Of a stretch of 64,000 nt of DNA, positions 5,755 through 48,391 are shown piece after piece (the stretch's first letter is position 1; every line of letters starts with the position of its first letter). Under the pieces are notes generated by a model. That model saw only the letters and a list, made by a program, of their open reading frames with translations, ran no database searches and had not been told where the DNA came from. The translations under genes and the position numbers were made by a program. The DNA comes from Candidatus Doudnabacteria bacterium (GTDB taxonomy: Bacteria > Patescibacteriota > Doudnabacteria > UBA920). The stretch spans positions 18,102-82,101 of the forward strand of contig CAWBGV010000028.1 of the NCBI GenBank assembly GCA_963788395.1, written 5' to 3'.

Positions 5755-5838
5755 AGAAATTAAAATAGTAACCCAACAAATTTTCCCTAAAGGAAAATTG
5801 GCAAACCAACTGCTAGTAATAACTAAGCTGTTCCTTGC

Positions 5839-6199
5839 GGGGCCCCCGATCCGCCCGAGACGGATTGGGGAAAGGGGCAACAATCCGAACGTAATGGAGT
5901 CGCGTCCGACGCGGACGGAATGGAGTGAGGATTGATTATTTCCTTTTCAGGGCCCCCAATTTTCCATCCCTAGAAAAAAATCATAGGGAAAATTGGGGAA
6001 AGGGGCAACAATCCGAACGTAATGGAGTCGCGTCCGACGCGGACGGAATGGAGTGAGGATTGATTATTTCCTTTTCAGGGCCCCCAATTTTCCATCCCTA
6101 GAAAAAAATCATAGGGAAAATTGGGAAAAGGGGCAACAATCCGAACGTAATGGAGTCGCGTCCGACGCGGACGGAATGGAGTGAGGATTGATTGACCCG
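5839..6199 (-). repeat. tRNA-trailer repeat family, 3 tandem units (128-bp period)
   Basis: The unit ...ggggcaacaatccgaacgtaatggagtcgcgtccgacgcggacggaatggagtgaggattgatt... occurs three times. The junction word cagggccccc recurs at 5948 and 6076. The array abuts the CCA end of tRNA-Leu. Confidence 0.9.
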
Positions 6200-17811: not shown

Positions 17812-19195
17812 TATTTTCCAGTCAAGAGAATATACTGAAAGTAAACGCCGCACCGTGAGTTGTTAAGGATTAATGGTGTTTAATGGTTTTCCAGATTTCT
17901 CTCTTAGCCTCGTTCATCTGTTTGGCAAATTCGTTGTCTGAAAGCGCGAGGGAAATATCGTCCAGCTCTTTTTGCGTCCGTCCTGGGGCAAGATATTGTG
18001 TCCAGTTTTCCAATGTTTTTAATTTTTCATAAGGCGTGAGGTAAATTTCGTATTTTTTCTTCTGCTTGCCTTGGTTATCGGTGTATGTGGTAGGGTAGGC
18101 GCACTGTCGATGGAAATTCAGGTAGGTATTAAAGTGGCTTGTATACCATTGGTTAATAGCCGGAGCAAACTTTTTAGGAATGTAGCTGTAACCATTCCAC
18201 TTGCGGATAATCTTGTTCTTGGTTTCGGCCAGCCCGTTGTCGTTGCTATGTCTGCTTCTGGATTTGGTTTGTTTGACTATTAAGCGTTCCAGCAAGTCCG
18301 CTACCTGATAGTTAATGTATTCGCTGCCATTGTCGGAATGGAAGTTTAAAATTTTAAAGGGAAATTCGGTTAAGGCTTTCTCCAGGGCCGGTATTAAAAA
18401 GTATTCGCTGATACCCTCCACGCAAACTACGATTTCCCATTGGGTGACTTCATCAACCAGGTTAATATGGTATACGCCTTTCTGCTTGTCCAAATCCCCC
18501 TGATGCACGGAATCTACCCGTAAATAGCCTGGTTTGCCGTAGGGCTGGGGTTTCCTGCGTTCCCCGATGGGAACCGTAACGGGATTGGTTTTAGTGTAAG
18601 TCAAAGCTTTACCGATATACCTGTCAGTACCACGCAGATTGTAAATGTGGCCTAAAGAAATATTTTGCAGGCGGACAAACTTTTCATCCTTAAACAGATT
18701 AAACATCCGCTTAAAAATGTTTTGTAAAGCCTGCCCAGTCGGCCGTCTGTGGAGATTGTCGGTTTCAGCCAAAGTTTCAATGTCGGCTTCGGTGTAAACT
18801 TTGGTAAAAATATTCCTTTTGCCCCAATCGGAAGACACGGTTAATTTTAATTGTCCCTTATCACGCTTCCTGCCCAACAGTTTTTTAATCTGAATCTTGG
18901 AATAGCCGGTAATCTTCGCCAGGTAGTTAATGGTAATTCCTTTTTCCTTTTTTCCCAGCTTAAAGTATGTAATCTGGTTAGTTTGTTTGGCTATCCAGTC
19001 ATAGACCTCCTGTTTACCCTGGGCCTGGAGCTGTAAGTGGCTGCTGCCCTTTAAAAAATCCTCCATTTGATTTATGCTAACTGCACATGAGTCGTTCATG
19101 GTGATGGTCATAACTCACAGTGTAGCGACTCGTGTTTTTAATGCCCAGCCTGTTCTATGTCCGAATTTCAGTATCTTTCCCATTGGAAACAGGGA
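17812..19195 (-). mobile_element. insertion sequence with rve (DDE) transposase
   Basis: Imperfect terminal inverted repeats (...gagaatatactgaaa at the left, tttcagtatctttccc... at the right) around a single transposase ORF. The element is AT-richer than the GC-rich DNA on both sides. Confidence 0.6.
17870..19111 (-). CDS. DDE transposase, integrase core (rve) domain
   Basis: N-terminal HTH, then the triad context VDSVHQGD ... FHSDNGSEY ... NGLAETKN. Confidence 0.8.
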   Translation of the reverse strand: MTITMNDSCAVSINQMEDFLKGSSHLQLQAQGKQEVYDWIAKQTNQITYFKLGKKEKGITINYLAKITGYSKIQIKKLLGRKRDKGQLKLTVSSDWGKRNIFTKVYTEADIETLAETDNLHRRPTGQALQNIFKRMFNLFKDEKFVRLQNISLGHIYNLRGTDRYIGKALTYTKTNPVTVPIGERRKPQPYGKPGYLRVDSVHQGDLDKQKGVYHINLVDEVTQWEIVVCVEGISEYFLIPALEKALTEFPFKILNFHSDNGSEYINYQVADLLERLIVKQTKSRSRHSNDNGLAETKNKIIRKWNGYSYIPKKFAPAINQWYTSHFNTYLNFHRQCAYPTTYTDNQGKQKKKYEIYLTPYEKLKTLENWTQYLAPGRTQKELDDISLALSDNEFAKQMNEAKREIWKTIKHH

Positions 19196-19234
19196 GAGCC
19201 CTCAGTATCCTTTTGTATTGTAAAATACTGGGCT

Positions 19235-19263
19235 TTGACATTTCCCTTTATATCCTGTATAAT
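19235..19263 (+). promoter_or_regulatory. consensus sigma70 promoter
   Basis: TTGACA (19235-19240), 17 nt, TATAAT (19258-19263), upstream of the 19345-21565 gene pair. Confidence 0.65.
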
Positions 19264-19344
19264 TTTAAGTTCCTCAGGCCTACCCAGACGTATCCTGAAG
19301 ACAAAACTTGAGATTGCAAATTTCCAATTTAATAGGAGGCTTAA

Positions 19345-20034
19345 ATGGCTTCAGAGCTCACACAAAGCCAAACGGAAGTTTTTGAACAAGCCAAACAATC
19401 TATAATTGGTGAGCTCGATGAGGAAACCCTTAATTGGGATTTCTCAAAGATGCTCGATCAGTTAAAGACAACAATCGCCAACAAAAGTCCTACGGAAAGC
19501 GGGGCAACTCGCAATGCTGTTCGTTTCTTTTGCCGCCACTACCTGAACATGAAAGGCGAAGCATTCAACGAAACTCGGCGCTGGCTGACTGGCGAAAAGT
19601 CCATGTCATCTGCAGAGATTCAGCTCGTGCTACGCACATTGAAAGCTCTCAACGACGGGACTTTTGTAGAACCAGATTCCAAGCCATCGGCGTCCGAAAC
19701 CGAATACGACTCGTGCAGGGAGTTGGCGGCCGCAGTTATACCAACTGTCGGACAGCCAATCACCCAGCCAAAACCAGGCGTAGTTCGCAAGCTCATCGAC
19801 CATACGATTTCGCTGTTCAACTCGCTTGTCGGTTTAATTGTCGAATCTGGTGTTCAGCCTTCCGACGTGTTTGACGGAGACCGGATGCAGATTCGCGGTG
19901 CGTTGCAGAAAATTTGTGACGCATTTGGTATCAACGTGGTTTTTCCCGAGCCCGATGCGGCTCGTAACCAGCCAGTGACGAGAGACGACCTCTCTAGTTT
20001 AGGGCTAACTCTTACAGGAAAGAAAAGGAGATAG
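19345..20034 (+). CDS. hypothetical protein, upstream partner of the GHKL ATPase
   Basis: 229-aa ORF with SD taggagg. Its stop lies 4 nt before the next start. Confidence 0.6.
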   Translation: MASELTQSQTEVFEQAKQSIIGELDEETLNWDFSKMLDQLKTTIANKSPTESGATRNAVRFFCRHYLNMKGEAFNETRRWLTGEKSMSSAEIQLVLRTLKALNDGTFVEPDSKPSASETEYDSCRELAAAVIPTVGQPITQPKPGVVRKLIDHTISLFNSLVGLIVESGVQPSDVFDGDRMQIRGALQKICDAFGINVVFPEPDAARNQPVTRDDLSSLGLTLTGKKRR

Positions 20035-20038
20035 AGTT

Positions 20039-21565
20039 ATGAGATTCCAGATGAAAGTTACCGCCTTCCACATGGTCGACAACCTCGCCACCGGTCTCTA
20101 CGAGAGTGTGGGTCAGCGCCTGATGGAGCTGATTCGCAATTCTCTGGTTGCCAGCATGGCCGATCCGAACGTTTGGGAACCCAAGCGGGCGAAGATCGAG
20201 ATGTCGATTATTTCCAACCACCCGCTTTCACCCAGCAAGAATCCAGCACTCATCATACTGGACCATGGCTGCGGCTTGACTGATCCGGCGCTCGAACGCT
20301 ACTTTAACTGGCTCGGCACTCCCTTGAGTCAGCTTCGCCAGCACAGTAACGGTTCCTATGGCGGTGCTTCACAAAAGGGCATCGGCCGTCTGGCAGCACT
20401 CGCTCTAAACGAGAACTGCCTCCATGACGACGTGATGACCCGCATCAAGCACGGATACTACCTGCTTACGCGGACGTCCAAGACCGGTAATGTTCGTTTC
20501 GTGCCGGTCATTCCCGAAAAGGCGGAGACGGAACAGGGTTTCGATACCGAACGTTTCATTTCCTCAACCTCGACGGAACTCGGCCCGCTTAAGAATCTGC
20601 AAGGTTCGTTTACGGCAGTGGTCATTCCGACTCCGGTTTTCAAGAGCCACGCCGAGATTTACGAGGCGATCAAATGGCTCCTCCCGCGCGAACAGGATAA
20701 GATGTTCGATCTTCAGATCGGCGGCAAGGCATTCGGGCCACCCCCGCTGGAAAAGGAGATTAATCTTTCCTTACAAGACGGCCGTTACCGTGCCCGCCTC
20801 GGTGTCGGCAATACCGACAGCGACGGCGTTTGGCTCTGCGATGATGAGACAGGCTTTCGGGTCGCGAGCTGCCAGAAGCTTGGCAGACTCCTCCCTGATC
20901 CGCTTTGGTATCCCGACCTCGTCGGAGATATCTTTGCGCCAAACCTTCTCCGCCATCAAAACACCGCCCGTAGCACTCTTGCCAAGGAGTTTACTCGCAA
21001 GGGCAATAAAGAGTGGCAGCGTCTGCTGATGTTCCTCATTCGGGACGTCTCACCGCAGGCCAAGCAACTCATTGAACGGGATTCCATCCGCGGCAACGCC
21101 GCCGAAACCCTCGATGAACTGGCAGAACTGTTCAACGATCGTTTTGGCCCACCTGACGAATCGGATCACGGCGATGGCCCGCACAAAAAGCGGGAACCCA
21201 AAACCCCTGAACCCGGCGGCAATGGAGAGGGTGGTAATGGTGACGGAGACGGCGGTGAAAAGGAGACCGATCCTGAACGTCGCTATCGGCGTCACATCGC
21301 TATCAAGGTGCGAGACGAGGTCTTCTACCTCTATCGCGGCCAGACCCTGCATCCGTATGTCTTTGCCCAAGTCAGTCCCAACAATCCGAAGATGATCTTC
21401 GTGAACGTGCGGGGCGGATATAAGGCGCTACCGGATCAAAAGGCGGCCCGTCGTGAGCACTGTTTCGTCCAAGTGCTTATGGCAATCGGCACGAGCAAAT
21501 TTCCCTCTGATCGTTACCAGGCAATGCTGTTTGCCAACGAGGTCAGGGGCGAGTTTCTCAAGTAG
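20039..21565 (+). CDS. GHKL-type (HATPase_c_3-like) ATPase domain protein
   Basis: Bergerat-fold motifs in the correct order: ELIRNSLVAS (N-box), ILDHGCGLT (DxGxG), ASQKGIGRLAALAL (G2). A Gly/Asp/Glu-rich linker and an unknown C-terminal domain follow. Confidence 0.6.
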   Translation: MRFQMKVTAFHMVDNLATGLYESVGQRLMELIRNSLVASMADPNVWEPKRAKIEMSIISNHPLSPSKNPALIILDHGCGLTDPALERYFNWLGTPLSQLRQHSNGSYGGASQKGIGRLAALALNENCLHDDVMTRIKHGYYLLTRTSKTGNVRFVPVIPEKAETEQGFDTERFISSTSTELGPLKNLQGSFTAVVIPTPVFKSHAEIYEAIKWLLPREQDKMFDLQIGGKAFGPPPLEKEINLSLQDGRYRARLGVGNTDSDGVWLCDDETGFRVASCQKLGRLLPDPLWYPDLVGDIFAPNLLRHQNTARSTLAKEFTRKGNKEWQRLLMFLIRDVSPQAKQLIERDSIRGNAAETLDELAELFNDRFGPPDESDHGDGPHKKREPKTPEPGGNGEGGNGDGDGGEKETDPERRYRRHIAIKVRDEVFYLYRGQTLHPYVFAQVSPNNPKMIFVNVRGGYKALPDQKAARREHCFVQVLMAIGTSKFPSDRYQAMLFANEVRGEFLK

Positions 21566-21589
21566 TAACGCTCTGAAGCACAAACAAAG

Positions 21590-21626
21590 AACCCCACGAT
21601 CATTTACTGGTCGTGGGGTTATTTTT
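21590..21626. terminator. bidirectional terminator
   Basis: aaccccacga / tcgtggggtt stem followed by a T-run, between convergent genes. Confidence 0.65.
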
Positions 21627-22379
21627 ATCGCCGAAGTTATTGAAGTAGCGGAAAGGCTTGCCGATGAGGTCGGACGGTGGATCGGCACTGACCAGCTCAA
21701 CGGCCTGCCGATAAGCAAGCAGTGTGCCAATCTCCCGATCGTTTTCAGCTAGCAAGTCAATAATACTGTTGATGATGCCGCCTTCGCTCGCCAGCTCGGT
21801 TTCCAAACGAGCCTTTTCCATCTTTGCCGTCTGCTCATCCTCGCAAGCTCCGAGGCTTAAGAGTTGGCTGGTCATGGAAAGCTGTTCGGTTTTCTTGTCC
21901 CGTTCATTCTCCAAGTGCTCTTGGATATTTCTGACCGCATCGCTCCATTGCTCACGTCGCCGGAGTTCTGCGCAGATTTGATCGAGCGTTGTATTCAGCC
22001 GGACTTGCGGATTAGGTTGTCCGTGTTCAAGTTGCTCTGCCAACTCAGCTACTTGCGCTTCTGCGCCTGCAACTAAATCAGCAGCTGCACTATCGAGTTG
22101 CTCAACTGTGTTGAGCAGTTCGTCGACAGCCTTTGACAACTCCTTGTTGTCTTGACCGAGACCAATAGCCCTAATGAGACTCACTATGGTTTCGGCAAGC
22201 AACCGTTTAGATTCGGTATCAGCGGTTCCGAGCTGTAGGTGTGTTGCAAGCTCGTCTTCGGTATATTGAACCGCGCGGGAGATCTCCCGCGGATTGCGCA
22301 GTTCAACAACCTTTTGGGTGGTTTCAACTGGTGTTGGCGGTTGGCCCTTTTGCGGTTCCATCACTATCCTCCTATTCAA
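21600..22379 (-). CDS. hypothetical coiled-coil protein
   Basis: 259-aa ORF, highly helical, Glu/Leu/Ala-rich. Confidence 0.55.
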   Translation of the reverse strand: MNRRIVMEPQKGQPPTPVETTQKVVELRNPREISRAVQYTEDELATHLQLGTADTESKRLLAETIVSLIRAIGLGQDNKELSKAVDELLNTVEQLDSAAADLVAGAEAQVAELAEQLEHGQPNPQVRLNTTLDQICAELRRREQWSDAVRNIQEHLENERDKKTEQLSMTSQLLSLGACEDEQTAKMEKARLETELASEGGIINSIIDLLAENDREIGTLLAYRQAVELVSADPPSDLIGKPFRYFNNFGDKNNPTTSK

Positions 22380-22443
22380 GTTTTCATATTATTATATGGG
22401 TTTTTCGCATTGTTGTCAACCTTTCGGTATTTGCCATTTTGGC

Positions 22444-22472
22444 TTGACAAAAGCGGTTTTTGACCTTATAAT
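22444..22472 (+). promoter_or_regulatory. consensus sigma70 promoter
   Basis: TTGACA (22444-22449), 17 nt, TATAAT (22467-22472). Confidence 0.65.
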
Positions 22473-22536
22473 TTATAGTTCTGTCAGGAGATTTTTTCTT
22501 GCGGAAATGTTTTTTGAAATAAACCAAGGAGGCCTT

Positions 22537-23905
22537 ATGGAGGCTACTAAAGAGCAGGTCATTCGACTATTCCTGACGTTCCTGTCGCGGTATGTCCCCA
22601 TCGGGCAGGCGCAACTGGCAACTTTTAGGTGGACGAGGATTGGAGGCTAAAATTTGGTCGGAACTGCAAGTTCCTTCCGAGCATGGCTGGCTGATCGAAC
22701 GCAACAGGGAACGAGCGAGTAATCTCATCATCAATCATCGCTACGGCACCCACAACCAACTCCGAACTTTCGATCGTATCCTAGCCGGATACGGCGAAGA
22801 TCGAGAATTCATCGACGCGTTCCATTTGGATTTATGCGGAACGCTCTGCAACACCGCCATTGAAAACTTTTCGCCTGTATTACCGCTCCGTGCTCAAAAG
22901 CACAGGCCGGTGTTTGGCGATTACAGTCTGACCAGCGTCGCAATTTAACGTTGGAACAGTGGCCAAGTTTTCGTGCGCGCGCAAAACGCTTGTTCGGTTC
23001 ACAGGCAAATGACCTTCACGATCAAATCGTGGCACAACAGCGATGCGTGCCTGTCAGGCAGACTCGCCGGCATTTTTCAAGCCGTTTGATTCAGCCAAGG
23101 CCGCCAAGCGGGAATTCGGCTTGCTCATTGAGTTGACCGAATTATTACGCATGCAGCAGCTACCATGGATACCAGTGGCTGTTGAACGTTATATCTACGT
23201 CAGCCGCTACAAACGCCGACCCTTCCGGATGCGGACGTATTTTTTCCGTTTCGGACAGCAAAATGCAAGCTCCTCGGAATTCGCCTTTGCGCAAGCCTGG
23301 GTGAACAGTAAAACGTTCTTTGCTAATGATGAAGCATTCACTGAAGTCAAAATGCCAGTCGTTAGTATCACAGTTCCACCAACTACGAAAGGAATCGTTA
23401 CGCATATGGAACAGACAACGCCGAAACTCATCGATTTGTCAGGATACGTGGCCGTGCCAAAACCGGAATACGACCAACTCCTGGCCGACAGCCAACAGCT
23501 CCGCGCCATCCGCTCCGCACTCGAAGGTGCGATGGTATCCAATACCCACCCCGCCCAGCCCTCTTCGACTTCCCCGCCTTCGGTTGAGCCGCAAGGGAAT
23601 AAGGCTGGCCGAGTGCGAAAGTCCTGGGACAGCTTCACCGCCTGCGAGCAGATCGACTTCACCATCAAGGCTCTGGAGTTGCGGCTGGCCTTAGGCGGTA
23701 AGTTCACCGGCACAGAAGGCACCGCCGCGTGGGAGAAGCTGCTCAAAGGCACGTTTGGATACTACAATCCGAAGCTCGGTCGCAGCACACGTGCGACCTT
23801 GGCTCGCACCAGCGGCGAGAAGTTCCGCCCCGAGTTCGAGGAGCGGATCCGCAAAGCCTGCGGAGACAAGGCCAGCCTTACCTCGACCGCCTCGCCAAGC
23901 TGTAA
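22537..23905 (+). CDS. hypothetical protein, several apparent frameshifts
   Basis: SD aaggagg plus ATG at 22537. The pieces 22537-22650, 22592-22948, 22951-23136 and 23043-23984 read as one protein (…IDAFHLDLCGTL…GRCLAITVADQRRN…). The 3' end is uncertain because one frame reads through the terminator. Confidence 0.45.
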
Positions 23906-23931
23906 CGCCAGCAGTAGCAAATCATTCGTAG

Positions 23932-23961
23932 CAGGAGTTCCCAGTGGACTCCTGTTTTTTT
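23932..23961 (+). terminator. rho-independent terminator (right edge of GC-rich island)
   Basis: caggagt / actcctg stem followed by T7. Confidence 0.75.
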
Positions 23962-24187
23962 ATTTACCCATATTTAGACCGTAATTCTGTATATTTTTGG
24001 GAGTTAAATTATCCACATTTGTTCAGCTAGACTTTAAGTGAACGATAGTATACCATAAGAATATGCCCGATTATTACAATTTGTATGAGTATCAAAGTGG
24101 CAACATACATATCATACCGAAGGGTATGTATTAGTTCATCCCGACGGCAGCACCGACCGCATTCCATTAGATCCGGTAATTTTTGAC

Positions 24188-24640
24188 ATGATCCTTAAGG
24201 CTATCCATAAATCTGCATTAGAACAAGCGACACCAAATAGCAAAGCTGCAATCACCATTAGCCTTTACACAGAATCTCTGAACGAATATATCGATTTAGA
24301 AGTCTTTAAAACCGAAGGCCGACAGCGCAGCAAAGCTGTGTTTGATGTGTTATGCAGTAAGCAGGCAGTCGAGCGGTATAAACTGGAACTGGATGATAAG
24401 AAAACATTTTTTAAGGACAATTGGCAGTCCAAGATGGCGATAGAAGCGGACATTCCGGCCTACAGCGTTACCTGCTCTGTAGTGCCGGCAAAACTGACTG
24501 CTTTTGTGGAAGAGCGGTTTAAATTCAATAAAGCCTTTTACGAGCAAGTCAGCTGGACATATGGGCAAATCATTAAAGTTATTGAAACTCATTTTAAGGA
24601 GCCGGTAGAATTTAATCCGGAGCTTAACAATATTACGTGA
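24188..24640 (+). CDS. hypothetical protein
   Basis: 150-aa ORF in an AT-rich block. Confidence 0.5.
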   Translation: MILKAIHKSALEQATPNSKAAITISLYTESLNEYIDLEVFKTEGRQRSKAVFDVLCSKQAVERYKLELDDKKTFFKDNWQSKMAIEADIPAYSVTCSVVPAKLTAFVEERFKFNKAFYEQVSWTYGQIIKVIETHFKEPVEFNPELNNIT

Positions 24641-24927
24641 CGTTGTTGGCCAAACTACAGGAGTATTTTCAAAGCGATATTCGCGCCACCTTATTTGAGG
24701 AATTAACGTTGCCTTTTAAAACATTATTTTTCCATCAGCACGAGATTACTGCAATCAAACAGGATGTTAAGAAAATCACCGATCCCATGCATGACAACTT
24801 GGCTGGCTTGCAGCGGATTATTGACCTGTATAGTTTGGACCAGCCAAAAGATACTAACTTTGAGCAGTTGGAAGATTTTTTTGGCAAATTTACAGAAGAG
24901 CAGTGGCCGGGGGCGTTGCCAAAATAG
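24637..24927 (+). CDS. hypothetical protein
   Basis: 96-aa ORF with a 4-nt overlap (GTGA) to the preceding ORF. Confidence 0.45.
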   Translation: MTLLAKLQEYFQSDIRATLFEELTLPFKTLFFHQHEITAIKQDVKKITDPMHDNLAGLQRIIDLYSLDQPKDTNFEQLEDFFGKFTEEQWPGALPK

Positions 24928-25949
24928 CTTAGCCAAGCCATCACCAATTAACCCTTATAAGACGCTAATTTTCCGATTCCTCAATCAAAATTGCAGTTAA
25001 CAAGGATATAAAAATGCTTTAAGGTCAGTGTGAATAAGCCACCTTGGAAGTTACTGCTGCATGTGGCCGAAGACGGAAAAGCCACTTGTTCAATATATCT
25101 TCTTAGCCCCTTAAAGGCATATGGATTATTTGAATACCCATGGCGATTGTAGGCTATATACCCAATCAGGCAAACATTTGACTACAATTTATTGAAGAAG
25201 AAAACGGCCAGTCGTCGCGGCCTGCCATGCCAATGGAAGTCATCTCGCCACAGGCTTACCAGCAACGCTTAAACAAACTTAATATCTACTTAAAAAAACT
25301 AGAAAAAGAGGAAAATGAAAAAACCGCCAATAAAACGGCGGTTTTTTGTTGTGTTTTTTTAATTTCCACTTTGTTTAAGAAAATTTTGTCTGCGAACCTA
25401 TAGATACATTAAACATTAATCTACAATCGTATGACAAAATCATTACGAAAAAATGTGCAGCTGGATAATCCGGCTGAAGAAAGTAGTAGCTATTTTTCCA
25501 CGCATGACCTTGCATGCGCCGGAAGCTTATCGATTTGCAGGCTTTGAGCTTCTATCTGGCTCAGCAGGAGACGATCCACGAAGATAAAATTTACCTTTCC
25601 ACTCGCCGAGGACAAAATTCACAGAACACGCGTAAAAAAGTTTTTGGGGATGGTGATTTTGGAGAAGGTTAAACATTCCCAAGGTTATTTCAAATGGGAT
25701 CAGGCGTTGAAAAATCAAATTATTCTCGGAGTAGAGCCATGGAATTGACCGACCAACAAATCGAGAAATTCAGAGCTATATAAGCAGCAATTTGGAATTG
25801 AGATAGCTATGAAGATCGCAAAAGACCGCGGCCCAAGCTTATTCAGGCTCCTGGTCTAAAATGTCTATAAGCCCATAAGAGGAGGAGTATAAAAAGCGAA
25901 CCTCGGCTTTCAGGCGAGAGTAAAATCTAATACCATTAAATTGATTATT

Positions 25950-27268
25950 ATGGAAAACAATTACTTTAATTTTACCGCTTCACGTCATGATGACGAGCTC
26001 AGCCATGTCCAGGCCTACCATTAAAAAGGACGATGAAAAGAAAAATCATAACCTCCTCTGCGAGTTGTCGGCTTATACCGATGACTCGCAGTTCAACATT
26101 AGTTATAACGCGCCGCATCGACCGGCAAGTCATATATCCCTACGGAAATTGCCACGCTGTTTCCACAGGAAGATGTTATGGAAATCGGCCACAGTAGCCC
26201 TATGTCTTTTTACCATGACGCCAAGTTTGATGAAGAAAAGAAGGAACATATTATTGACCTGTCTAGAAAAATAATAATCTTCCTGGACCAGCCGCACAAT
26301 GACCTATTAACCCGGTTGCGCCCGTTATTGTCCCATGACAAAAAAGCCATCAAGATTAAAATTGCCGATAGATCCAAAAATGCCAGCTTGCGCACCAAGA
26401 ATATTACCATGATCGGTTTTCCGAGCGTGGTGTTCTGCACAGCTAGCTCCAACGTTGATGAGCAGGAATCCACTCGTTTTTTCTTGCTGAGTCCGGAAAT
26501 AAACCAAGAGAAAATCAGACAGGCTATTTCTCAAAAGATTGATAAGGAATCTAACCGCGCTAAGTTTATGGCTTGGCTGGACGAACTGCCAGAACGCAAG
26601 CTTCTCCAGCAGCGTATCGCGGCTATCAAGCAAGAAGCTATAACGGATATTAAAATTATAGATCCTAAAAAATCAAGGAGCGATTCTTTTAGTGAAACAA
26701 AATGCTGAAATCAAGGCACTCAAGAGATATTGGCCGGCTGCTGGCTTTAGTTAAATCGTTAGCGTTGCTGAACTTATGGTGGCGCCAAAAGGAAGGCTCA
26801 AGCATTACGGCTAACGAAGATGACGTCAATCAGGGCTTTGCCATTTGGAATAAGATTGCGGTTACTGAAGATCTAAATTTGCCTCCATATATTTATAACC
26901 TATTCCAAGAAGTCATCTTGCCGATCTGGAGCACTAAAGAAATTTCTTACATGAGCCTAGAGGGACAAAAGGAAGGCATCAGTAGACAGGAAGTGCAAAA
27001 AAAGCACCTTGAAGTCTACGGCCGGATGCTGGATCCAACCAAACTAGTTAAAGGAATTATTCCCATGCTGGAAACGGCCGAACTTATCACCCAAGAACCG
27101 CATCCTATGGACGGCCGTAAGATGCTGATTTTCCCTACAGTGGAGTCCCATAGTTCTAAACCGAAAATGAGCGAAGCTAAAAAAAAAGAGGCGGCTATAA
27201 AATTCATGACAGAGAATTTTCCCGATGGCCCGGATCCGGAAACTATCATTCGGGAGGCAGGACTTTAA
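25950..27268 (+). CDS. hypothetical protein (phage/plasmid-like), multiple apparent frameshifts
   Basis: Overlapping ORFs in different frames (25950-, 25987-26274, 26178-26708, 26702-27268) read as one ~440-aa protein. No motif recognised. Confidence 0.4.
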
Positions 27269-27548
27269 ACCAAGCACAACGGGTGAAACGCTTGATTGAT
27301 TAATCGATTAAGCAAACCTGACGCTGTGCCCGCTATGGCCACGACTAAAAATCCTCATCGCACAGTCACTTTGGTAGGTTTTGTCAGTTTTCTTGTTTGC
27401 CTCTTGCTTATAACCTAAATCAGCAAAAACCTACTACTGTTAAACCTACCATCCTTAATTATTTCGGCAAACAGCTATATGGGAATCGACTGTGTATCAG
27501 GCTAATCAATAAAGTTAGTTAACCGCTGTGCTCTTAAGTGAAACAATT

Positions 27549-28219
27549 ATGCCAAAACCAATAGCAGACAATTTATTTCGTCTTGAGACTCGCGAGCTTC
27601 AGAGGTTTGGATATTTCCGTGGCTTTAAGTGCGGCCAGATTATACTGCGTCACGGCAATTATAATTTGCCTCTAACCGTAGAAGCTGATTTTGAGGAAGA
27701 ATTTGCCGAACCAAAAATTTTCCTGTCTTACTGGACTAACCGTTATAAGCCTAATGCCAAATATCATAATTGTGAGATTCCGGTGGTTACGACTCCCTGT
27801 AATTTAGGCGGTAAGCGATATTGGTTTCTCTGCCCGTTGTGCGGCGAAAAAAAGCCCGAGTGCTATATCTTCATGACGGTTATCTTGGCTGCGTCCGCTG
27901 CCACCAGCTGACTTACGAGAGTCAAAAATTAAGCGGCATCTGGAAAATTGGCGGCAAAGGCATTGGCTTCTCTGAGCTTGATCGTATGAAAGAAAACATC
28001 GGCAGACAAATTTATGCCGGCAAACCGACTAAGCAGTTTATAAAGTATAAGATGGCCGAAGTTAAATCGTTCGGTGGATTCATGGGCACGGCTTGTGCCA
28101 TTGATGCAAAATCGGGCCGAAACGCAGCGTTTTGGGCTAAAGATGGGCAAACCTTGGGACAAGTTTGGCAAAAAGGGCAAACAGGGGGCAAAGTTGCCAA
28201 AAGAGCCAAACCACGGTAA
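27549..28219 (+). CDS. hypothetical zinc-ribbon protein, one apparent frameshift
   Basis: CPLCGEKK / ARVLYLHDGYLGCVRCHQLTYESQ join across the A7 run near 27846. Confidence 0.45.
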
Positions 28220-28260
28220 TATAGGCACGATTTAAACTATCACCATTAAATTTCTATTAT

Positions 28261-29825
28261 ATGCAAAATAAATCTAACGCCAGTAAGTATATTGAATACT
28301 GCCGCAAGTCCTCTGACTCGGAAGACCGGCAGGTGCAATCAATTCCGGACCAACTGAAAGAATTGATGCCTTTAAGAATTGCGCGGCAGGCTAATGTTAT
28401 AAAATCTTATGGTGAATCGCAGTCAGCTAAAAAGCCCGGCCGCCCTTACTTTAACGAAATGATTAAAATGGTTGAGGACGGTAAAGCTGATGGCATCATC
28501 TGCTGGAAAATAAACCGCCTTGCCCGTAACCCGATTGACGGCGGGAAAATCCAGTGGCTGCTGCAAACCGGCAAACTCAAATCCATCCTTACGCCCGGCA
28601 AAGAATACTTACCGACTGACAATGTTTTAATGATGGCTGTTGAGCTTGGTATGGCTAACCAGTTTATATTAGACCTAAGCAAAGACGTTACTCGCGGCAT
28701 GAACACTAAGGTGCAAAAAGGCTGGCGGCCGGTTAAAGCGCCGCTTGGTTATTTAAACGATCCGGTTGGGTTGCGCGGCGAGAAAAGAATTTTTAAAGAT
28801 CCGGAACGGTTTGAGTTGGTGCAGAAAATGTGGAAGCTAATGCTTAGCGGTAATTATACTATCCGCAGGCTTCGAGACGTTATTACCAACGAGTGGGGTT
28901 TAAGAAGCAGGCAGAATAACAACACGTTAAGCTTAGGCGGCCTATACCGAATTTTTACTAACTCCTTTTACTACGGGGAGTTTACTTATCACGGCGAAGT
29001 CTTTCAAGGCAAACACGAGCCTATGAATTAGTAAAATGGAATTTGACCGAGTGCAACAGATTTTAGGCAGAGCTGGTAAGCCCAGGCCAAAATATAAGCG
29101 GCTACCATTTAACGGGCTTATTCAGTGCGGCGAATGCGGCGCCATGATTACCAGTGACGAGAAACTTAAAACCATGAAAGCCACAGGCGAAATCAAATCT
29201 TATATTTACCATCACTGCACTAAAAAGAAAAAGATACTGCCTGTTACCAAAGACCAATTAAGCACGAGGAGCTGGTTAAGCAGGTTAATGCTTATTTAAA
29301 TCTCATAACCATCCCCGAAGAATTTTTGCACTGGACCCCGTGAGGTGCTTAAATCAAACAACGAGCAGGAAGAACACGACCGCACCCTTATGTTGGAAAA
29401 CCATCGCAAGAATTACGACTCATGCCTTAAGCGCATCGATAATTTAATTAACCTGTATATTTCGGGCGATAATGCGGATAAGGAGCTTTTAACCGAGGAT
29501 GAGTTTAAAAGTCAGAAAAACGGGTTAGTGGCTGAGAAAGCGCAAATAGAGTCACAGATGCGGCAGGTTGGCGAGAGGTTAACGACTGGATGGACTTAAC
29601 TGAGAAAACGTTTGAATTTGCGACTTATGCTAAATCTTTTTTTGAAAAAGCGGATTTATGAGCAGAAGACTGACATTCTGCGCGCCTTTGGTCAGAACTT
29701 TGTGTTACAAGGCGGAAAACTTGATATTACCTTGGCTAAACCGTTCTTGGTTTTGAAAAATGGGCTAACGGAGGCATCCATTCAAATGGCTATGTCAGAA
29801 CCGGCAAAACTCTTGAGACCTCATC
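28261..29825 (+). CDS. large serine recombinase, fragmented by at least 3 frameshifts
   Basis: Resolvase N-domain (YCRKSSDSEDRQVQSIPDQ, ICWKINRLARN), recombinase domain (GWRPVKAPLGY), zinc ribbon (CGECGAMITSDE…HHCTKKK), coiled coil, and C-terminal tail. Pieces: 28261-29031, 29036-29299, 29345-29599, 29612-. The 3' end is uncertain. Confidence 0.8.
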
Positions 29826-29828
29826 GGA

Positions 29829-29854
29829 AAAAACCGCCCTTTAGAGACGGTTTT
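29829..29854. terminator. bidirectional terminator (ends the minus-strand tRNA operon)
   Basis: aaaaccg / cggtttt stem with an A-run before and a T-run after. It lies 8 nt downstream of the tRNA-Gly 3' end. Confidence 0.7.
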
Positions 29855-29861
29855 TTCACGT

Positions 29862-29935
29862 TGGAGCGGCTAACGGGAATCGAACCCGTGTCCCTTCCTT
29901 GGCAAGGAAGAGTTCTACCATTGAACCATAGCCGC
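29862..29935 (-). tRNA. tRNA-Gly(GCC)
   Basis: Manual cloverleaf: GCGGCTA…TAGCCGC, anticodon loop TTGCCAA, T-loop TTCGATT, encoded CCA. Confidence 0.9.
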
Positions 29936-30002
29936 GTTAGGTTTTATATATTATATAGGTAACAAACAAAAGATTCAATCCAAATTGTGTAACTTAACTG
30001 TT

Positions 30003-30611
30003 CCCATCCGGGCCCTAAATTTTCTCGCCGTTTCCAAATGGAAAATTTGGGGTAAGGGGCAACACCCCGAACGTAACGGAGTGGCCGCCGAGTAGGCGGA
30101 CACGGAGTGGAGTGAGGGTTGATTGACTGTATCTTTTGGGGCCCCCAATTTTTCTAGCAAGGAAAATTGGGGAAAGGGGCAACAACCCGAACGAACGGAG
30201 TGGCCGCCGAGTAGGCGGACACGGAGTGGAGTGAGGGTTGATTGACTGTATCTTTTGGGGTCCCCCAATTTTTCTAGCAAGGAAAATTGGGGAAAGGGGC
30301 AACAACCCGAACGTAACGGAGTGGCCGCCGAGTAGGCGGACACGGAGTGGAGTGAGGGTTGATTGACTGTATCTTTTGGGGTCCCCAATTTTTCTAGCAA
30401 GGAAAATTGGGGAAAGGGGCAACAACCCGAACGTAACGGAGTGGCCGCCGAGTAGGCGGACACGGAGTGGAGTGAGGGTTGATTGACTGTATCTTTTGGT
30501 GCTCCCCAATTTTTCTAGCAAGGGAAATTGGGGAAAGGGGCAACAACCCGAACGAAACGGAGTGGCCGCCGAGTAGGCGGACACGGAGTGGAGTGAGGGT
30601 TGATTGACCCG
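30003..30611 (-). repeat. tRNA-trailer repeat family, 5 tandem units (119-121-bp period)
   Basis: The junction word tgtatcttttgg occurs at 30128, 30247, 30368 and 30488. The units are near-identical, and the last abuts the CCA of tRNA-Phe. Confidence 0.95.
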
Positions 30612-30686
30612 TGGTGCCGGGCCCCAGAGTCGAACTGGGCACGCCTGCCTCTTCAGGGCAGCGCTCTACCGATGAGCTAGCCCGGC
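30612..30686 (-). tRNA. tRNA-Phe(GAA)
   Basis: GCCGGGC…GCCCGGC, anticodon loop CTGAAGA, T-loop TTCGACT, encoded CCA. Confidence 0.9.
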
Positions 30687-30742
30687 ACGTCGTCGCACTT
30701 TATTCCGGCCTACGAGAATGAATTAAAACCAGCCTCCATAAA

Positions 30743-30941
30743 GTGTTCCTCTTCCCCAAATTCCTTTTCTCTATGTTTTTTCTTCGCTTCGCTTCGAAAA
30801 AACTAAATGTGAAAAGCAATTCGGGGTCCTGCCAATTTTCCATCCCAAATTCAATTGGGAAAATTGGGGCAAGGGGCAACACCCTGAACGTAACGGAGTC
30901 GCGTCCGACGCGACGGAATGGAGTGAAGGGTGATTGACCCG
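30743..30941 (-). repeat. tRNA-trailer repeat family, composite copy (standard unit + inverted long-loop hairpin module)
   Basis: 30823-30941 is a standard unit abutting the tRNA-Val CCA. 30743-30826 is the reverse complement of 47871-47965 in the 16S insertion. Confidence 0.85.
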
Positions 30942-31018
30942 TGGTGGGCGATAAAGGATTCGAACCTTTGGCCTCCTCGGTGTAAACGAGGCGCTCTAAC
31001 CAACTGAGCTAATCGCCC
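30942..31018 (-). tRNA. tRNA-Val(UAC)
   Basis: GGGCGAT…ATCGCCC, anticodon loop TTTACAC, T-loop TTCGAAT, CCA. Confidence 0.9.
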
Positions 31019-31194
31019 CTACTTACCCAGGAGGCTCCGTCTCTTTTAGAATTCCAGGTGCAAAATCGAATTGCTTAGAAACTATAGCAAAAAACCGGTT
31101 TTTTGACAACCATCAAAGCTCTTCCTTAAACAGCCTTGGATGAAGCTAAAAAAAGCTTTCCCTCATATTTATGAGGTAAAATGGCAAAAAGGGC

Positions 31195-31223
31195 TTGAAA
31201 AAACCACTTAAATAGAGTATAAT
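31195..31223 (+). promoter_or_regulatory. sigma70-type promoter
   Basis: TTGAAA, 17 nt, TATAAT, upstream of the 31373 gene. Confidence 0.5.
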
Positions 31224-31372
31224 TATATTCAGAAAGTGCTATAGCGGCACTCTTTTTTATTGCCCGTAAGCTCTAGCAACTTTTCTGGTCACTTAGTATG
31301 TACTTTAAAAGTTAAAGTCTTATTTCCCTTTAAATTAAGGGAAATAGGGGAGAAAGGAGTTTGATTCAAAGA

Positions 31373-32080
31373 ATGAAAGCTCTTTTTACCCTTAAGTCTG
31401 CCATAAATCAGAACATGGTCTTTGCGACTATCATTCTGATCTCGTCAATCTCCTTGGTTTATCCGGAATTGGCCTTAGGCGCAAGCCTTCAGACGAACGG
31501 GCAAAACACAGCCAATCTAGTATTTGAAATCAAAGATCCAAATCAAATTCAAGATATAGTAAGTCCAGATGAAAATCAAAATTCATTAGCCTATAGTACT
31601 ATTGTAAAAGCCGATCCGTTAGTGGTTGATTTACAGAGTTATTTAGAAAAGAACAATTCACCCTTAGCGCCTTACGCGGCCCAGATAGTCCAAATGCCGC
31701 GTTGGGACGACGCCTTAGCCATTAGTTTTGTGGAAAGCAATATGTGCGTCCACCAGATTAATTACAATTGTAGCGGTATGGGCGGCGCTCCCGGCGATCC
31801 AACCTGGCATAAGTATTCAAACTATATGGATTGGTTTAAAGATATGACCAACCTGTTGAATGAACCGCTGTATGCTCAAAAGTATACTACTTTTGCTCAG
31901 ATGCGCGGCGTGTATGTCCAGCCCGGTAGTATCCAATGGGTGCATGGGGCCGAAAAAGTTAAAAGTGATTTAGTCGCCCTGCAGCAGCAAGCTCAGGCCG
32001 AACGCGCTCAAATGATAGCCAGCTATCAGACCGAGCTCGCCACTAACTCCAGTGTTACCCTTTTAGCTGATACGCAATAA
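31373..32080 (+). CDS. secreted hypothetical protein
   Basis: Signal-peptide-like N-terminus (MKALFTLKSAINQNMVFATIILISSISLVYPELALG). No catalytic motif recognised. The TTG at 31361 is too close to the SD. Confidence 0.55.
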   Translation: MKALFTLKSAINQNMVFATIILISSISLVYPELALGASLQTNGQNTANLVFEIKDPNQIQDIVSPDENQNSLAYSTIVKADPLVVDLQSYLEKNNSPLAPYAAQIVQMPRWDDALAISFVESNMCVHQINYNCSGMGGAPGDPTWHKYSNYMDWFKDMTNLLNEPLYAQKYTTFAQMRGVYVQPGSIQWVHGAEKVKSDLVALQQQAQAERAQMIASYQTELATNSSVTLLADTQ

Positions 32081-32159
32081 TTTGGTTCCCCCGCCGCAAG
32101 CGGGGGACTTTTGTTGATTAATTCTTTAATTTCGATTAAAATATAAAAGCTTTTTATCT

Positions 32160-32234
32160 GGTGCAGTGGCGAAGTGGTAACGCGGCGGTCTGCAAAACCG
32201 CAATGCATGGGTTCGATTCCCATCTGCACCTCCA
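32160..32234 (+). tRNA. tRNA-Cys(GCA)
   Basis: GGTGCAG…CTGCACC, anticodon loop CTGCAAA, T-loop TTCGATT, CCA. Confidence 0.9.
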
Positions 32235-32345
32235 CGGGTCAATCAACCCTCACTCTGCTTCGTCCGCCTCGGGCGGACTCCGCTGCGTTCAGGTTGTTGC
32301 CCCTTACCCCAAATTTTCCCTGCTGGAAAAATTTGTGGGCCCCGA
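32235..32345 (+). repeat. tRNA-trailer repeat family, single unit (plus orientation)
   Basis: cgggtcaatcaaccctcactctgcttcg-[tccgcctcgggcgga]-ctccgctgcgttcaggttgttgcccc-ttaccccaaattttcc/ctgct/ggaaaaatttgtggg-ccccgatggg, directly after the CCA. Confidence 0.9.
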
Positions 32346-32378
32346 TGGGAACAGCAAAAGCGGGGCAAAAAGCAATAG

Positions 32379-32464
32379 GCCCGAGTGGCGGAATGGCATA
32401 CGCTATCGACTTAAAATCGATCGCCCTTACGGGATTGAGGGTTCGACTCCCTCCTCGGGCACCA
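32379..32464 (+). tRNA. tRNA-Leu(UAA)
   Basis: GCCCGAG…CTCGGGC, anticodon loop CTTAAAA, long variable arm, CCA. Confidence 0.9.
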
Positions 32465-32595
32465 AAAATTGACAAATATTTTCCTAGATGTTACAGTTGT
32501 TTTGTTATTAATTTTTTGAGGAGTTGAACCAACCCCGTCGCAGCAGCAATTTATTTCAAAACCGCAGCAAGTCAAATCAATGGCTTAATTAAGTG

Positions 32596-32627
32596 TAACG
32601 AATTCATATTTGAGTTCGTTATTTTTT
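32596..32627 (+). terminator. rho-independent terminator of the tRNA-Cys/Leu unit
   Basis: taacgaa / ttcgtta stem followed by TTTTTT. Confidence 0.6.
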
Positions 32628-39238: not shown

Positions 39239-39282
39239 GCTAAAAAATAAATTTTTGAAATGGGAGGATTGGTTTTATTGTT

Positions 39283-39404
39283 CCCATCGGGGGCCCCAAA
39301 TTTTCTCGCAATATCCAAAAGGAAAATTTGGGGAAAGGGGCATTGACCGAACGAAGCGGAGTCCGCCCGAGGCGGACGAAGCGGAGTGAGTAATAATTGA
39401 CCCG
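39283..39404 (-). repeat. tRNA-trailer repeat family, single unit
   Basis: Same architecture as 32235-32345. It abuts the CCA of tRNA-Ile. Confidence 0.9.
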
Positions 39405-39480
39405 TGGTGGGCGTGCTAGGACTCGAACCTAGGACCAATCGTGTATAAGACGACCGCTCTACCAACTGAGCTACACGCCC
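39405..39480 (-). tRNA. tRNA-Ile(UAU)
   Basis: GGGCGTG TA GCTC AGTTGGTA GAGC G GTCGT CTTATAC ACGAT TGGTC CTAGG TTCGAGT CCTAG CACGCCC A CCA. Positions 34-36 are TAT. Confidence 0.8.
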
Positions 39481-46876: not shown

Positions 46877-46920
<44 letters not shown>

Positions 46921-47623: not shown

Positions 47624-47695
47624 TCATCGGTCAGCGGTTCTATACAAGATGCCGACTACCCCTACGATTACAGTAATTACGATAATCAACCACAT
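47624..47695 (-). CDS. 23-aa hydrophobic peptide encoded antisense within the 16S insertion
   Basis: aaggagg, 7 nt, ATG, MWLIIVITVIVGVVGILYRTADR*. Its stop overlaps (ATGA) the start of the 88-aa ORF 47361-47627. Confidence 0.4.
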   Translation of the reverse strand: MWLIIVITVIVGVVGILYRTADR

Positions 47696-47718
47696 ATTTC
47701 ATCCTCCTTGAACCGTTT

Positions 47719-47747
47719 AAGATAACACAAGTGGATGATCAAGTCAA
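47719..47747 (-). promoter_or_regulatory. sigma70-type promoter for the antisense peptide cassette
   Basis: On the minus strand: TTGACT, 17 nt, TATCTT, about 20 nt upstream of the SD. Confidence 0.45.
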
Positions 47748-48391
47748 TACAGTTGGCTTCCAAAAATTTGCGTCAGGCGAGCCTCAGAGACTACACGCGA
47801 AACTCCCACGTTAAGGTGGGATGATGATATAGTCCACGCTTCATGGCGACATGAAGACCTGGTCCCGAAAGGGGCCCCCAAATTGCTTTTTACATTTTAG
47901 TTTTTTCGACCGAGAGGGAGAAAAAAACATAGAGAAAAGGAATTTGGGGAAGAGGAGCGCTTCACGGAGACGGCACAAAATAAATTTACAATTTATTTTG
48001 TGGAGTCGGAGTGAAGGGCGACGAGCCAGCAGCAGCGGTAATACAGAGACCTCAAGCGTTATCCGGAATCATTGGGCGTAAAGCGTACCGATAGGTGGTT
48101 TACAAAGTCAGAAGTGAAATCCAAAGCTTAACTTTGGGACTGTCTTTTGAAACTTGTAAACTAGAGGGGCAAAGAGGAAGCTGGAACGAACGGTGTAGTA
48201 GTGAAATGCGTTGATATCGTTCGGAACACCAATAGCGTAGGCAGGCTTCTGGGTGCCACCTGACACTGCTAGGACGAAAGCGTGGGGAGCGAATGGGATT
48301 AGATACCCCAGTAGTCCACGCTGTAAACGATGATGATTAGGTGCTAGAGAGTATCGACCCTCTTTAGTACCATAGCTAACGCGTTAAATCA

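Follow-up and report, generated by a model that had tools for sequence, protein, structure and literature searches.

Two kinds of bacterial repeat come closest to the element described here. The tyrT-linked repeats of Escherichia coli each carry the last 19 nt of tRNA-Tyr, and the REP/BIME, ERIC and Correia/NEMIS families are confined to transcribed intergenic DNA, where their RNA hairpins are seen by RNases. Genomes of the candidate phyla radiation (CPR) are small and densely packed and so contain few repeats, and any repeat that has persisted there is informative. Here, we describe a family of hairpin-rich repeats from a 64,000-nucleotide stretch of a Candidatus Doudnabacteria bacterium genome (assembly GCA_963788395.1, contig CAWBGV010000028.1, positions 18,102 to 82,101 of the forward strand; hereafter, the window), in which five units stand head to tail in the trailer of tRNA-Phe and further copies follow four other tRNAs. 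Units of this kind, which we call type A, carry no tRNA segment, in contrast to the tyrT repeats: the internal units of the two arrays start with GTCAAT or TCAAT and hold no tRNA-Phe or tRNA-Leu sequence.

The family is real, statistically solid and previously undescribed, and belongs to the known class of structured bacterial intergenic repeats; what sets it apart is how precisely, and pointing outward, its units are placed against tRNA ends. The reading that we favour, with a probability of roughly 0.55, is that of a lineage-restricted, non-coding selfish repeat of stable-RNA gene flanks, spread or kept uniform at the DNA level, passively transcribed and cleared from the transcripts by host RNases. 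Its patchy distribution speaks for a selfish repeat and against an essential tRNA-processing signal.

Copies, fold and array structure in the window

Seven tRNA genes were called in the window by ARAGORN, and five of them are followed by the repeat. Tandem Repeats Finder returned an array with a 120-nt period at 30040-30608 (4.7 copies, 97% matches) and a second, with a period of 128, at 5864-6193 (2.6 copies, 99% matches). Together with a unit-by-unit reading, this bears out the five tandem units of ~120 bp claimed in a preliminary description of the locus, although the source is probably a short-read metagenome assembly, for which the exact unit number of a 97%-identical array is not guaranteed. 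The type A copies and the genes around them are as follows (units are listed in tRNA sense).

29998..30611, minus strand: type A five-unit array in the tRNA-Phe trailer, head to tail, units of 119-130 nt
30611-30488 (u1), 30487-30368 (u2), 30367-30247 (u3), 30246-30128 (u4), 30127-29998 (u5), minus strand: units of the Phe array
30612..30686, minus strand: tRNA-Phe(GAA), its encoded CCA followed without a gap by CGGGTCAAT of u1
5828..6199, minus strand: three-unit array of tRNA-Leu(GAG), period 128, directly after the CCA of the tRNA (6200-6287)
6199-6064 (u1), 6063-5936 (u2), 5935-5828 (u3), minus strand: units of the Leu(GAG) array
30828..30941, minus strand: type A single copy after the CCA of tRNA-Val (30942-31018)
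32235..32354, plus strand: type A single copy after the CCA of tRNA-Cys (32160-32234), with the element-free tRNA-Leu(TAA) next
39278..39404, minus strand: type A single copy after the CCA of tRNA-Ile(TAT) (39405-39480), with an intrinsic terminator next
29862..29935, minus strand: tRNA-Gly(GCC), last gene of its cluster, element-free
31081..31109, minus strand: promoter-like site TTGTCA-17-TG-TATAGT upstream of tRNA-Val

A covariance model built from 13 type A copies recovered 11 in the window, at 76-132 bits and at five tRNA 3' ends (three units at Leu(GAG), five at Phe and one each at Val, Cys and Ile(TAT)). A twelfth match, weak and diverged, lies within an insertion in the 16S rRNA gene (47861-48026, minus strand; 20.4 bits, E ~2e-4), so that the earlier count of 12 copies at six loci and at five of seven tRNAs is correct, with 11 strong copies and one distant one. 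Word counts agree with the model: the junction word TGTATCTTTTGG occurs exactly at 30128, 30247, 30368 and 30488 (the four positions listed before; none expected by chance), the core word GGGGCAACAACCCGAACG ten times with up to three mismatches (0.04 expected) and the core word TGCCCCTTNCCCCAA 11 times (0.58 expected). The junction CCA|CGGGTCAAT is identical at all five element-bearing tRNAs, as the preliminary description had it.

Transcription of the array together with the tRNAs, also proposed there, is supported by its placement inside the cluster, by the promoter-like site upstream of tRNA-Val (the likely start of a Val-Phe(-Gly) transcript that contains the array) and by the canonical intrinsic terminator behind tRNA-Gly at ~29829-29857 (a 13-bp hairpin and U-run, -18.4 kcal/mol, z = -3.8), but the picture of a single operon needs correction in that tRNA-Gly has a promoter-like site of its own (TTGAAT-17-TATAAT, 29978-29950). 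The two element-free tRNAs, Gly and Leu(TAA), are both last in their operons, with their own trailers directly after them.

A type A unit is a non-coding, hairpin-rich sequence of ~115-135 bp in which the head CGGGTCAAT at the 5' end, a D1 hairpin, a linker, a P3 hairpin and a C-rich tail follow one another, and single-sequence folds of copies at different loci gave this same architecture. D1 is a long irregular hairpin made of a basal helix P1, internal loops and a variable apical helix P2. In P1, the head (GGG.CAA.CAACCC) pairs with GGGUUGUUG.CCC, in a CAACCC/GGGTTG-like helix; the internal loops (UCACUCC and CUCC...CGUUC) hold the invariant words UCACUC and CGUU and are set among three 2-bp helices. 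The linker, TGCCCCTT, contains the invariant word UGCCCCUU, and P3 is a near-invariant 12-bp stem, CCCCAAATTTTC/GAAAATTTGGGG (CCCCAAAUUUUC/GAAAAUUUGGGG), with a variable loop. We rejected a protein-coding repeat because the unit lengths of the Phe array (124, 120, 121, 119 and 130 nt for u1 to u5) and the 128-nt period of the Leu array break any frame; no reading frame is kept across the units, no unit contains an ATG, and the listed open reading frames (ORFs) lie in differing frames.

The conserved fold is strongly supported by covariation. In an alignment (A2) of 15 distinct copies, drawn from the window and from five further contigs, standard pairs filled 94.3% of helix cells, against 25-50% when partners were slid by one to three columns; changes on both sides were seen at 19 of the 28 pairs, against 3-7 in the slid controls; and none of 500 shuffles attained the observed covariation score, figures to be read with the proviso that A2 was fitted to the model, which favours structure, and that hairpins maintained at the DNA level would yield the same signal. 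An independent MAFFT/RNAalifold run returned the same helices. The conserved structure noted in the preliminary description is borne out, with compensatory changes above both kinds of control. A second feature noticed at the same time, a short direct repeat that flanks hairpin 1 and changes in concert with it, is better read as short helices: the flanking dinucleotides are AT/AT or GC/GC in the window, which are self-complementary, and GT/AC or AC/GT in other copies, which pair without repeating, so the flanks change in concert because they base-pair. The same GT/AC and AC/GT variants weaken the idea of a nested mobile hairpin with a target duplication.

Strand comparisons do not single out the tRNA-sense RNA as the molecule under selection. 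The modelled helices of the 15 copies hold 11 G-U cells and 10 A-C cells, and thus lack the asymmetry (G-U tolerated, A-C avoided on the transcribed sense) that was looked for in them, and in all 15 copies it is the antisense strand that has the more stable fold. One copy, that of tRNA-Ile(TAT), is decaying: its P1 is degenerate, five of the cells being non-standard, and a direct copy of GGTCAAT has taken the place of the 3' strand.

Three further roles for parts of the unit were considered and set aside. P3 is followed by no U-tract, as an intrinsic terminator would be; the type B' copy and the type A copy on either side of tRNA-Phe are, by eye, not complementary in the window, as a leader-trailer processing stem would have to be; and pairing of the tail GATGGGAA with the tRNA-Cys T-arm or with CCA-CGGG is confined to Cys, is not conserved elsewhere and was put down to chance.

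Both arrays are built alike. Each opens with a number of identical units that share a single kind of P3 and end in the tail AAAAG(G)AWAYA, and is closed by a last unit with the same D1, a different P3 and a 'singleton' tail (CCCCG..GGAACAG). In the Phe array, u1-u4 share a short P3 and the tail CCCCAAAAGATACA, and u5 has an unlike P3 and the 'terminal' tail CCCGGATGGGAACAG; in the Leu(GAG) array, the P3 of the last unit again differs from those before it, and the tail is CCCCGCAAGGAACAG. Units abut without a spacer, and the repeat boundary is off by one base between the two arrays (internal junctions ACA|GTCAAT in one and TAA|TCAAT in the other), a difference that fits recombination better than repeated precise insertion. 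We infer that the arrays arose locally by unequal crossing-over between two adjacent, partly different elements, which would explain why an odd last unit closes both. Modules are also shuffled among single copies: the Cys copy joins the Phe P1 to the Ile P2, and u5 of the Phe array has the P3 and tail of Ile. Within conserved columns, the window copies are 74-91% alike and cluster together, and four copies from other contigs (L012, L023, L025 and L035) are 85-92% alike despite non-orthologous contexts; on these sequence comparisons, the clustering has the pattern of repeat bursts or homogenisation.

On the plus strand, an antisense GGGGNCCCC mini-hairpin followed by TTTTT recurs at unit junctions of the Phe array (30136-30148, 30255-30268 and 30376-30388); being terminator-like, these could stop antisense transcription through the array. 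On the sense strand, the same palindrome is an alternative pairing partner for the 3' strand of P3.

Relatives, the antisense sister subfamily and copies elsewhere

Eight relatives (neighbouring protein 44-61% identical) allowed a syntenic comparison, and all eight keep the same tRNA sets, namely Leu-GAG, Val-Phe-Gly, Cys-Leu-TAA and Ile-TAT. At the 3' ends of these tRNAs, type A is present at 0 of 45 tRNAs in seven relatives and at 0 of six in the eighth (L035). Val-Phe spacers are 22-50 nt in several of them, and the Phe-Gly spacer is 1 nt in three (L030, L032 and L037). A processing signal, one of the roles raised when the array was first noticed, cannot be a required one, given eight relatives that lack the element at the same tRNAs, and the element is not a conserved part of tRNA maturation in this clade.

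The same flanks hold other inserts in the relatives, including LAGLIDADG/HNH genes, other palindromic elements and duplicated tRNA 3' fragments. Two contigs with an identical protein (P0021) differ in the spacer from tRNA-Cys to tRNA-Leu(TAA) (L032 11200-12061 and L034 1369-1595), which is 700 nt with a LAGLIDADG ORF in one and 65 nt without it in the other, by sequence a presence/absence polymorphism of a free-standing homing endonuclease gene. Similar inserts occupy the L035 Val-Phe spacer and, as an HNH gene, the interval between Leu-TAA and Cys in L028. Duplicated tRNA fragments lie 10-80 nt from intact tRNAs (L040 8400-8446, minus strand; the Val, Cys and Leu(TAA) flanks of L030; L012 3545-3668); for example, the ancestral Val 3' end TGTATCGCCCACCA lies downstream of a tRNA-Val with a different acceptor end, other fragments are pieces of T-arm, acceptor and CCA, and in L030 the same words occur on both sides of the tRNA, inverted. 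Such fragments suggest tRNA gene replacement or integration scars. An inverted tRNA-Gly 3' end (GGCTAAGGGGAATCGAAC...) also opens a repeated, GC-rich structured segment of ~200 nt that another tRNA-Gly 3'-like piece closes (L028 4110-4330 and 6850-7040; L040 and L042 just past the tRNA-Gly terminator). Other small hairpins abut a CCA (L042 10880-10937, minus strand; L037 Cys; L028 Leu(GAG); L040 after the Val fragment), as in CCA|CTTCTTCG-TCCCGCC-GCAG-GGCGGGA-CTACGAAGTGCAAGG, whose hairpin and TTCG/CTAC flanks resemble the type A P2, and CCA-abutting hairpin modules seem to be a general feature of the clade.

A sister subfamily, type B, has the head (A)CGTCGC followed by the same order of parts (P1, CUCC loops, P2) and, in its 3' part, a CTCCTYTT linker and a CCCCAAA...TTTGGGG hairpin (alignment A3). 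It reads outward from four tRNA 5' ends (Phe of the window, Lys of L023, Phe of L030 and Gly of L035) and is thus antisense to the tRNA transcript. Two copies lie in the window.

30687..30826, plus strand: type B copy at the 5' end of tRNA-Phe, antisense to the operon
47861..48026, minus strand: type B copy, diverged, filling the 3' part of the 16S insertion up to the downstream exon (GCCAGCAGCAGCGG), antisense to the rRNA

The 255-nt spacer between tRNA-Val and tRNA-Phe consists of one sense type A and one antisense type B copy and nothing else, and folds into four hairpins. Types A and B are alike in that the head is set against the end of a stable-RNA gene and the unit points away from it; the conserved words of type B, however, belong to the strand opposite to that of the tRNA transcript, and an RNA that worked in the tRNA sense would leave them unconserved. 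The copy in the 16S gene, previously listed with the others, does exist, but it belongs to this sister subfamily and is antisense to the rRNA.

The 16S rRNA gene itself (46870-49026, plus strand) carries a 660-nt insertion at ~47361-48024, in the 530-loop region after GCUAACUCUGU. Rfam places a group I intron at 47361-47856, and the other 165 nt are antisense type B up to the exon boundary; the base that ends the intron ahead of GCCAGCAG appears to be A, where G is usual. No 23S gene follows the 16S gene, and two tyrosine recombinase genes lie just downstream of it (49291-50262, plus strand, and 50250-51038, minus strand).

Pattern scans that did not require a tRNA were used to find copies elsewhere. 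A scan of a genome collection gave 20 stretches, of which two were inspected: one, from a Candidatus Doudnabacteria metagenome-assembled genome (L012), holds a real copy and the other (L008) was rejected by the model; the remaining 18 were taken as chance matches, uninspected. A metagenome scan gave six stretches, four with real copies (L022-L025), one partial (L021) and one due to chance (L026). Most copies outside the window again follow ...CCA|CGGGTCAAT. The L012 copy is preceded by two fragments that resemble tRNA 3' halves, the L022 and L024 copies follow ...CCACCA with no detectable tRNA body, and the L023 copy begins 20 nt past the CCA of tRNA-Arg; upstream of the L022, L024 and L025 copies, Rfam matched neither transfer-messenger RNA nor any other known RNA. 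In L025 (positions 1-165), the element follows a good T-arm and ...CTCCGCAACCA where neither ARAGORN nor Rfam calls a tRNA, and the upstream piece may be a tRNA with an intron, truncated where the contig ends; tRNAs of this kind are reported for Patescibacteria (PMC13011429).

One copy stands apart from any tRNA. In L035 (= L036), the element at 9838-9979 scores 95 bits with all helices intact and no tRNA beside it. It is antisense to the orthologue of a 239-aa gene of the window and ends 21 nt ahead of that orthologue, on its upstream side (relatives of this window protein are named Candidatus Doudnabacteria or Patescibacteria). With this orphan, the 20-nt gap after the L023 tRNA-Arg and the antisense type B copies at tRNA 5' ends and in the 16S intron, the linkage to tRNA 3' ends proves not to be universal. 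A weak model match upstream of gene 31361 was considered as a decayed orthologue of the L035 orphan and rejected on inspection.

Database searches gave the family no name. At gathering thresholds, Rfam 15 placed no family on any unit in the whole window, and a permissive scan (E<=10) of 29800-32600 returned only the tRNAs and noise, with no match to RtT, LOOT, tRNA-like families or small ribozymes (HDV-like, hatchet, pistol, twister and hammerhead among them); the initial impression that the repeat could not be assigned to a known RNA is upheld. A distant blastn search with one unit found no match in phage and plasmid collections, and a pattern scan of viral contigs gave a single chance match, which the covariance model rejected. 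We also rejected a type III toxin-antitoxin array: ToxI-like arrays are tandem repeats of ~36-50 nt immediately upstream of an endoribonuclease toxin gene, whereas the units here are 119-130 nt long and the arrays are followed by tRNA-Gly or an FMN reductase gene and by no toxin gene.

Elsewhere in the window, and separate from the repeat family, a full-length LOOT RNA (RF03000) lies between two protein genes (56277-56397, minus strand; 88.9 bits against a gathering threshold of 46.4). Next to the tRNA-Gly terminator, a serine recombinase is broken up into two or three ORFs (28261-29031, Resolvase; 29036-29299, Zn_ribbon_recom; 29345-29599). The interval 17870-29599 also contains an rve-like integrase core (17870-19111) and ORFs, ~9 kb in all, that lack a Pfam match; it is probably a mobile element, either integrated or in decay.

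Weighing a selfish repeat against other readings

Several features support the reading as a selfish repeat: the empty orthologous sites, the orphan copy, antisense type B and the lack of strand asymmetry, and likewise the clustering by similarity, the shuffled modules, the decaying Ile copy, the other mobile DNA in the flanks and the crossover-like arrays. Under this reading, the element would settle against the ends of stable-RNA genes, type A starting from the tRNA 3' CCA and type B from a tRNA 5' end or an rRNA intron end, presumably moved by an enzyme acting in trans. Inside tRNA operons, it would be transcribed passively as trailer or spacer RNA, and host RNases would then remove it, RNase P cutting at the next tRNA and RNase III-type cuts probably falling in the long D1 helix before exonucleolytic trimming. 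Arrays would expand by unequal recombination.

A number of observations weigh against a selfish repeat. Type A has no terminal inverted repeats (its inverted repeats, P2 and P3, are internal, and the head CGGGTCAAT is not complementary to the tail GGGAACAG) and no target-site duplication (no direct repeat flanks it; upstream is tRNA...CCA, and downstream sequences differ), and so lacks both of these defining features of MITEs; its termini demonstrate no known mode of transposition. Among 30 scanned ORFs of the window, no transposase was linked to the element: recombinase-type genes are present (rve-like, the split serine recombinase and two tyrosine recombinases), but none adjoins an element terminus, and Y1_Tnp had no match in these ORFs or in the called genes of ~190 kb of relatives. 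The search for a filled and an empty type A site between near-identical genomes found none, and the sequence examined amounts to ~64 kb of the source genome and ~190 kb of relatives. The strong covariation would also fit a host RNA function. The words UCACUC, CGUU and UGCCCCUU, single-stranded and invariant across genomes whose proteins are ~50% identical, are compatible with selection for such a function. Finally, CCA|CGGG is found in 9 of the 11 independent type A loci, always in the tRNA sense; to our knowledge, few bacterial elements target so precisely, and an exact, orientation-fixed junction is what a co-transcribed functional RNA would show.

The alternative that survives best, which we nevertheless hold to be unlikely, takes this junction at face value and makes the element a cis-acting RNA processing or insulator module that releases correct-ended tRNAs from polycistrons and keeps the folding of neighbouring tRNAs independent. 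The D1 rod, starting at CCA+1, would be an RNase III-like site, and P3 with its 3' NCCC tail would mimic the 12-bp acceptor/T-arm minihelix that RNase P cuts; hairpin-type substrates of RNase P are known, such as the precursor of 4.5S RNA, and P3 with its tail resembles them. The exact, orientation-fixed junction, the position between a tRNA and a terminator or next tRNA (hence within the transcript), the covarying structure and the 12-bp P3 stem followed by (A/G/C)CCC in most copies all speak for such a module. Yet relatives process the same tRNAs with plain spacers of 1-60 nt, so the module would be dispensable; one copy lies away from any tRNA; the homologous type B is antisense in its transcripts; G-U pairs are not biased toward the tRNA sense; and P1 of the Ile copy is broken.

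Rather less probable is a view that places the precision of the junction in the targeting or cutting step itself, with the family either a new kind of mobile element, which would target the shape of a stable-RNA gene and not a DNA word, or an RNA module that specifies cleavage exactly at the tRNA CCA end. In the first form, the element would insert directly on the 3' side of a folded tRNA, always in one orientation and using either DNA strand, or else at an intron/exon boundary; type A would come to lie after ACCA on the sense strand and type B, on the antisense strand, where the acceptor stem has its first base. Either form would explain the CCA-exact, outward-pointing placement, which we know from no described bacterial repeat.

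We consider it improbable that the tRNA trailers give rise to a trans-acting small RNA or sponge, each unit being released as a stable RNA, whose CUCC and UCACUCC loops would titrate mRNAs with GGAG or a protein that binds C-rich RNA. The exposed loops resemble the anti-Shine-Dalgarno tail of 16S rRNA, arrays would increase the amount made, and expression from tRNA promoters would tie the RNA to growth; the C-rich words are invariant and single-stranded in internal loops, copies are multiplied within highly expressed operons, and 3'ETS-leuZ and rtT RNA from E. coli tRNA operons are precedents. The same absence in relatives, the orphan copy and the orientation of type B count against a sponge, however, and with a motif of 4-7 nt the likeness to the anti-Shine-Dalgarno sequence may be chance.

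More doubtful still, by a little, is a remnant arm or attachment region left by integrative elements that target tRNA 3' ends, or a footprint of gene conversion by homing endonucleases. Duplicated tRNA 3' fragments and LAGLIDADG/HNH genes do occur at the same flanks in relatives, the L012 copy follows two tRNA 3'-half-like fragments, those of L022 and L024 follow ...CCACCA without a tRNA body, and the window holds recombinase genes; but the same 120 bp, and nothing more, would have had to be left behind at each of five separate tRNAs, the hairpins are kept by compensatory changes, tandem arrays exist, and type B sits at tRNA 5' ends, where integrases of this kind leave no arms.

A new class of self-cleaving ribozyme, cutting at its own 5' end after CCA and at unit junctions and thereby setting free the tRNA and unit-length RNAs, would account for the exact CCA|C boundary, the head-to-tail units without spacers and the conserved unpaired nucleotides framed by covarying helices, but it is very improbable, given that no Rfam ribozyme family matched even at E<=10, that the fold is a simple nested rod and hairpin with no supported pseudoknot, that the internal junctions differ between arrays (ACA|GTCAAT and TAA|TCAAT), that small self-cleaving ribozymes leave a 2',3'-cyclic phosphate, an end that would block aminoacylation, and that distribution and orientation speak against it as they do against the other RNA readings.

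Significance and comparison with described systems

The family is an entry point to the dynamics of tRNA flanks and to tRNA 3' maturation in CPR bacteria. It suggests that the tRNA flanks of Doudnabacteria-like bacteria are places where selfish DNA actively lands (type A, type B, homing endonuclease genes and duplicated tRNA fragments) and that hundreds of bases of structured RNA can be tolerated directly at the mature end of a tRNA without loss of that tRNA, which raises the question of how CCA-encoded tRNAs with a stable helix right behind them are matured, given the reduced RNase sets. If CCA-exact targeting is truly mechanistic, it would be a new mode of target choice. The covariance model is usable for annotation, where it avoids false ORFs in arrays and flags assemblies that may be collapsed.

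Among mobile elements, group IIC introns and IS200/IS605 share with the repeat an oriented placement 3' of a fold or short word, the lack of inverted terminal repeats and of target duplication, hairpins near both ends and a re-use of sites that gives head-to-tail copies. They differ in that no intron ribozyme, reverse transcriptase or Y1 transposase was found here and in that type B has no constant target word; group II introns, moreover, are reported to be missing in Patescibacteria (PMC13011429). SegB of phage T4 (PMC2330249) exemplifies the homing endonuclease genes that stand free within tRNA clusters; these are likewise selfish DNA in tRNA spacers, and relatives carry LAGLIDADG or HNH genes directly after the same tRNAs, but the element itself encodes nothing, and no endonuclease gene adjoins it in the window.

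Among RNAs, the functional 3'ETS-leuZ also derives from the 3' external spacer of a tRNA, although it is a single-copy, short and unstructured sponge, in contrast to a repeat family with arrays. The 178-bp repeats of E. coli tyrT, source of RtT RNA (RF00391), are closer: they too are tandem in a tRNA trailer and co-transcribed with it, RtT being processed out. RF00391, however, has no match to the element at E<=10, and the element is dispersed over many tRNAs and several genomes.

Finally, like REP/BIME, ERIC and Correia/NEMIS, the repeat is short, non-coding, palindromic, multi-copy, mosaic, clustered and patchy between relatives. It departs from these families in that type A has neither terminal inverted repeats nor a target duplication, no RAYT or transposase partner was seen in the ORFs scanned, and type A is oriented strictly at tRNA ends from CCA+1; its architecture is also much larger, with two domains. 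REP sequences are imperfect palindromes of 20-40 nt that have a conserved 5' tetranucleotide and a cognate Y1 (RAYT) gene; here, palindromic modules (P2 and P3) are present, but within a 115-135-nt unit of fixed two-domain order. The family works most like a REP/BIME or Correia-type repeat, and its tandem trailer form resembles tyrT/RtT.

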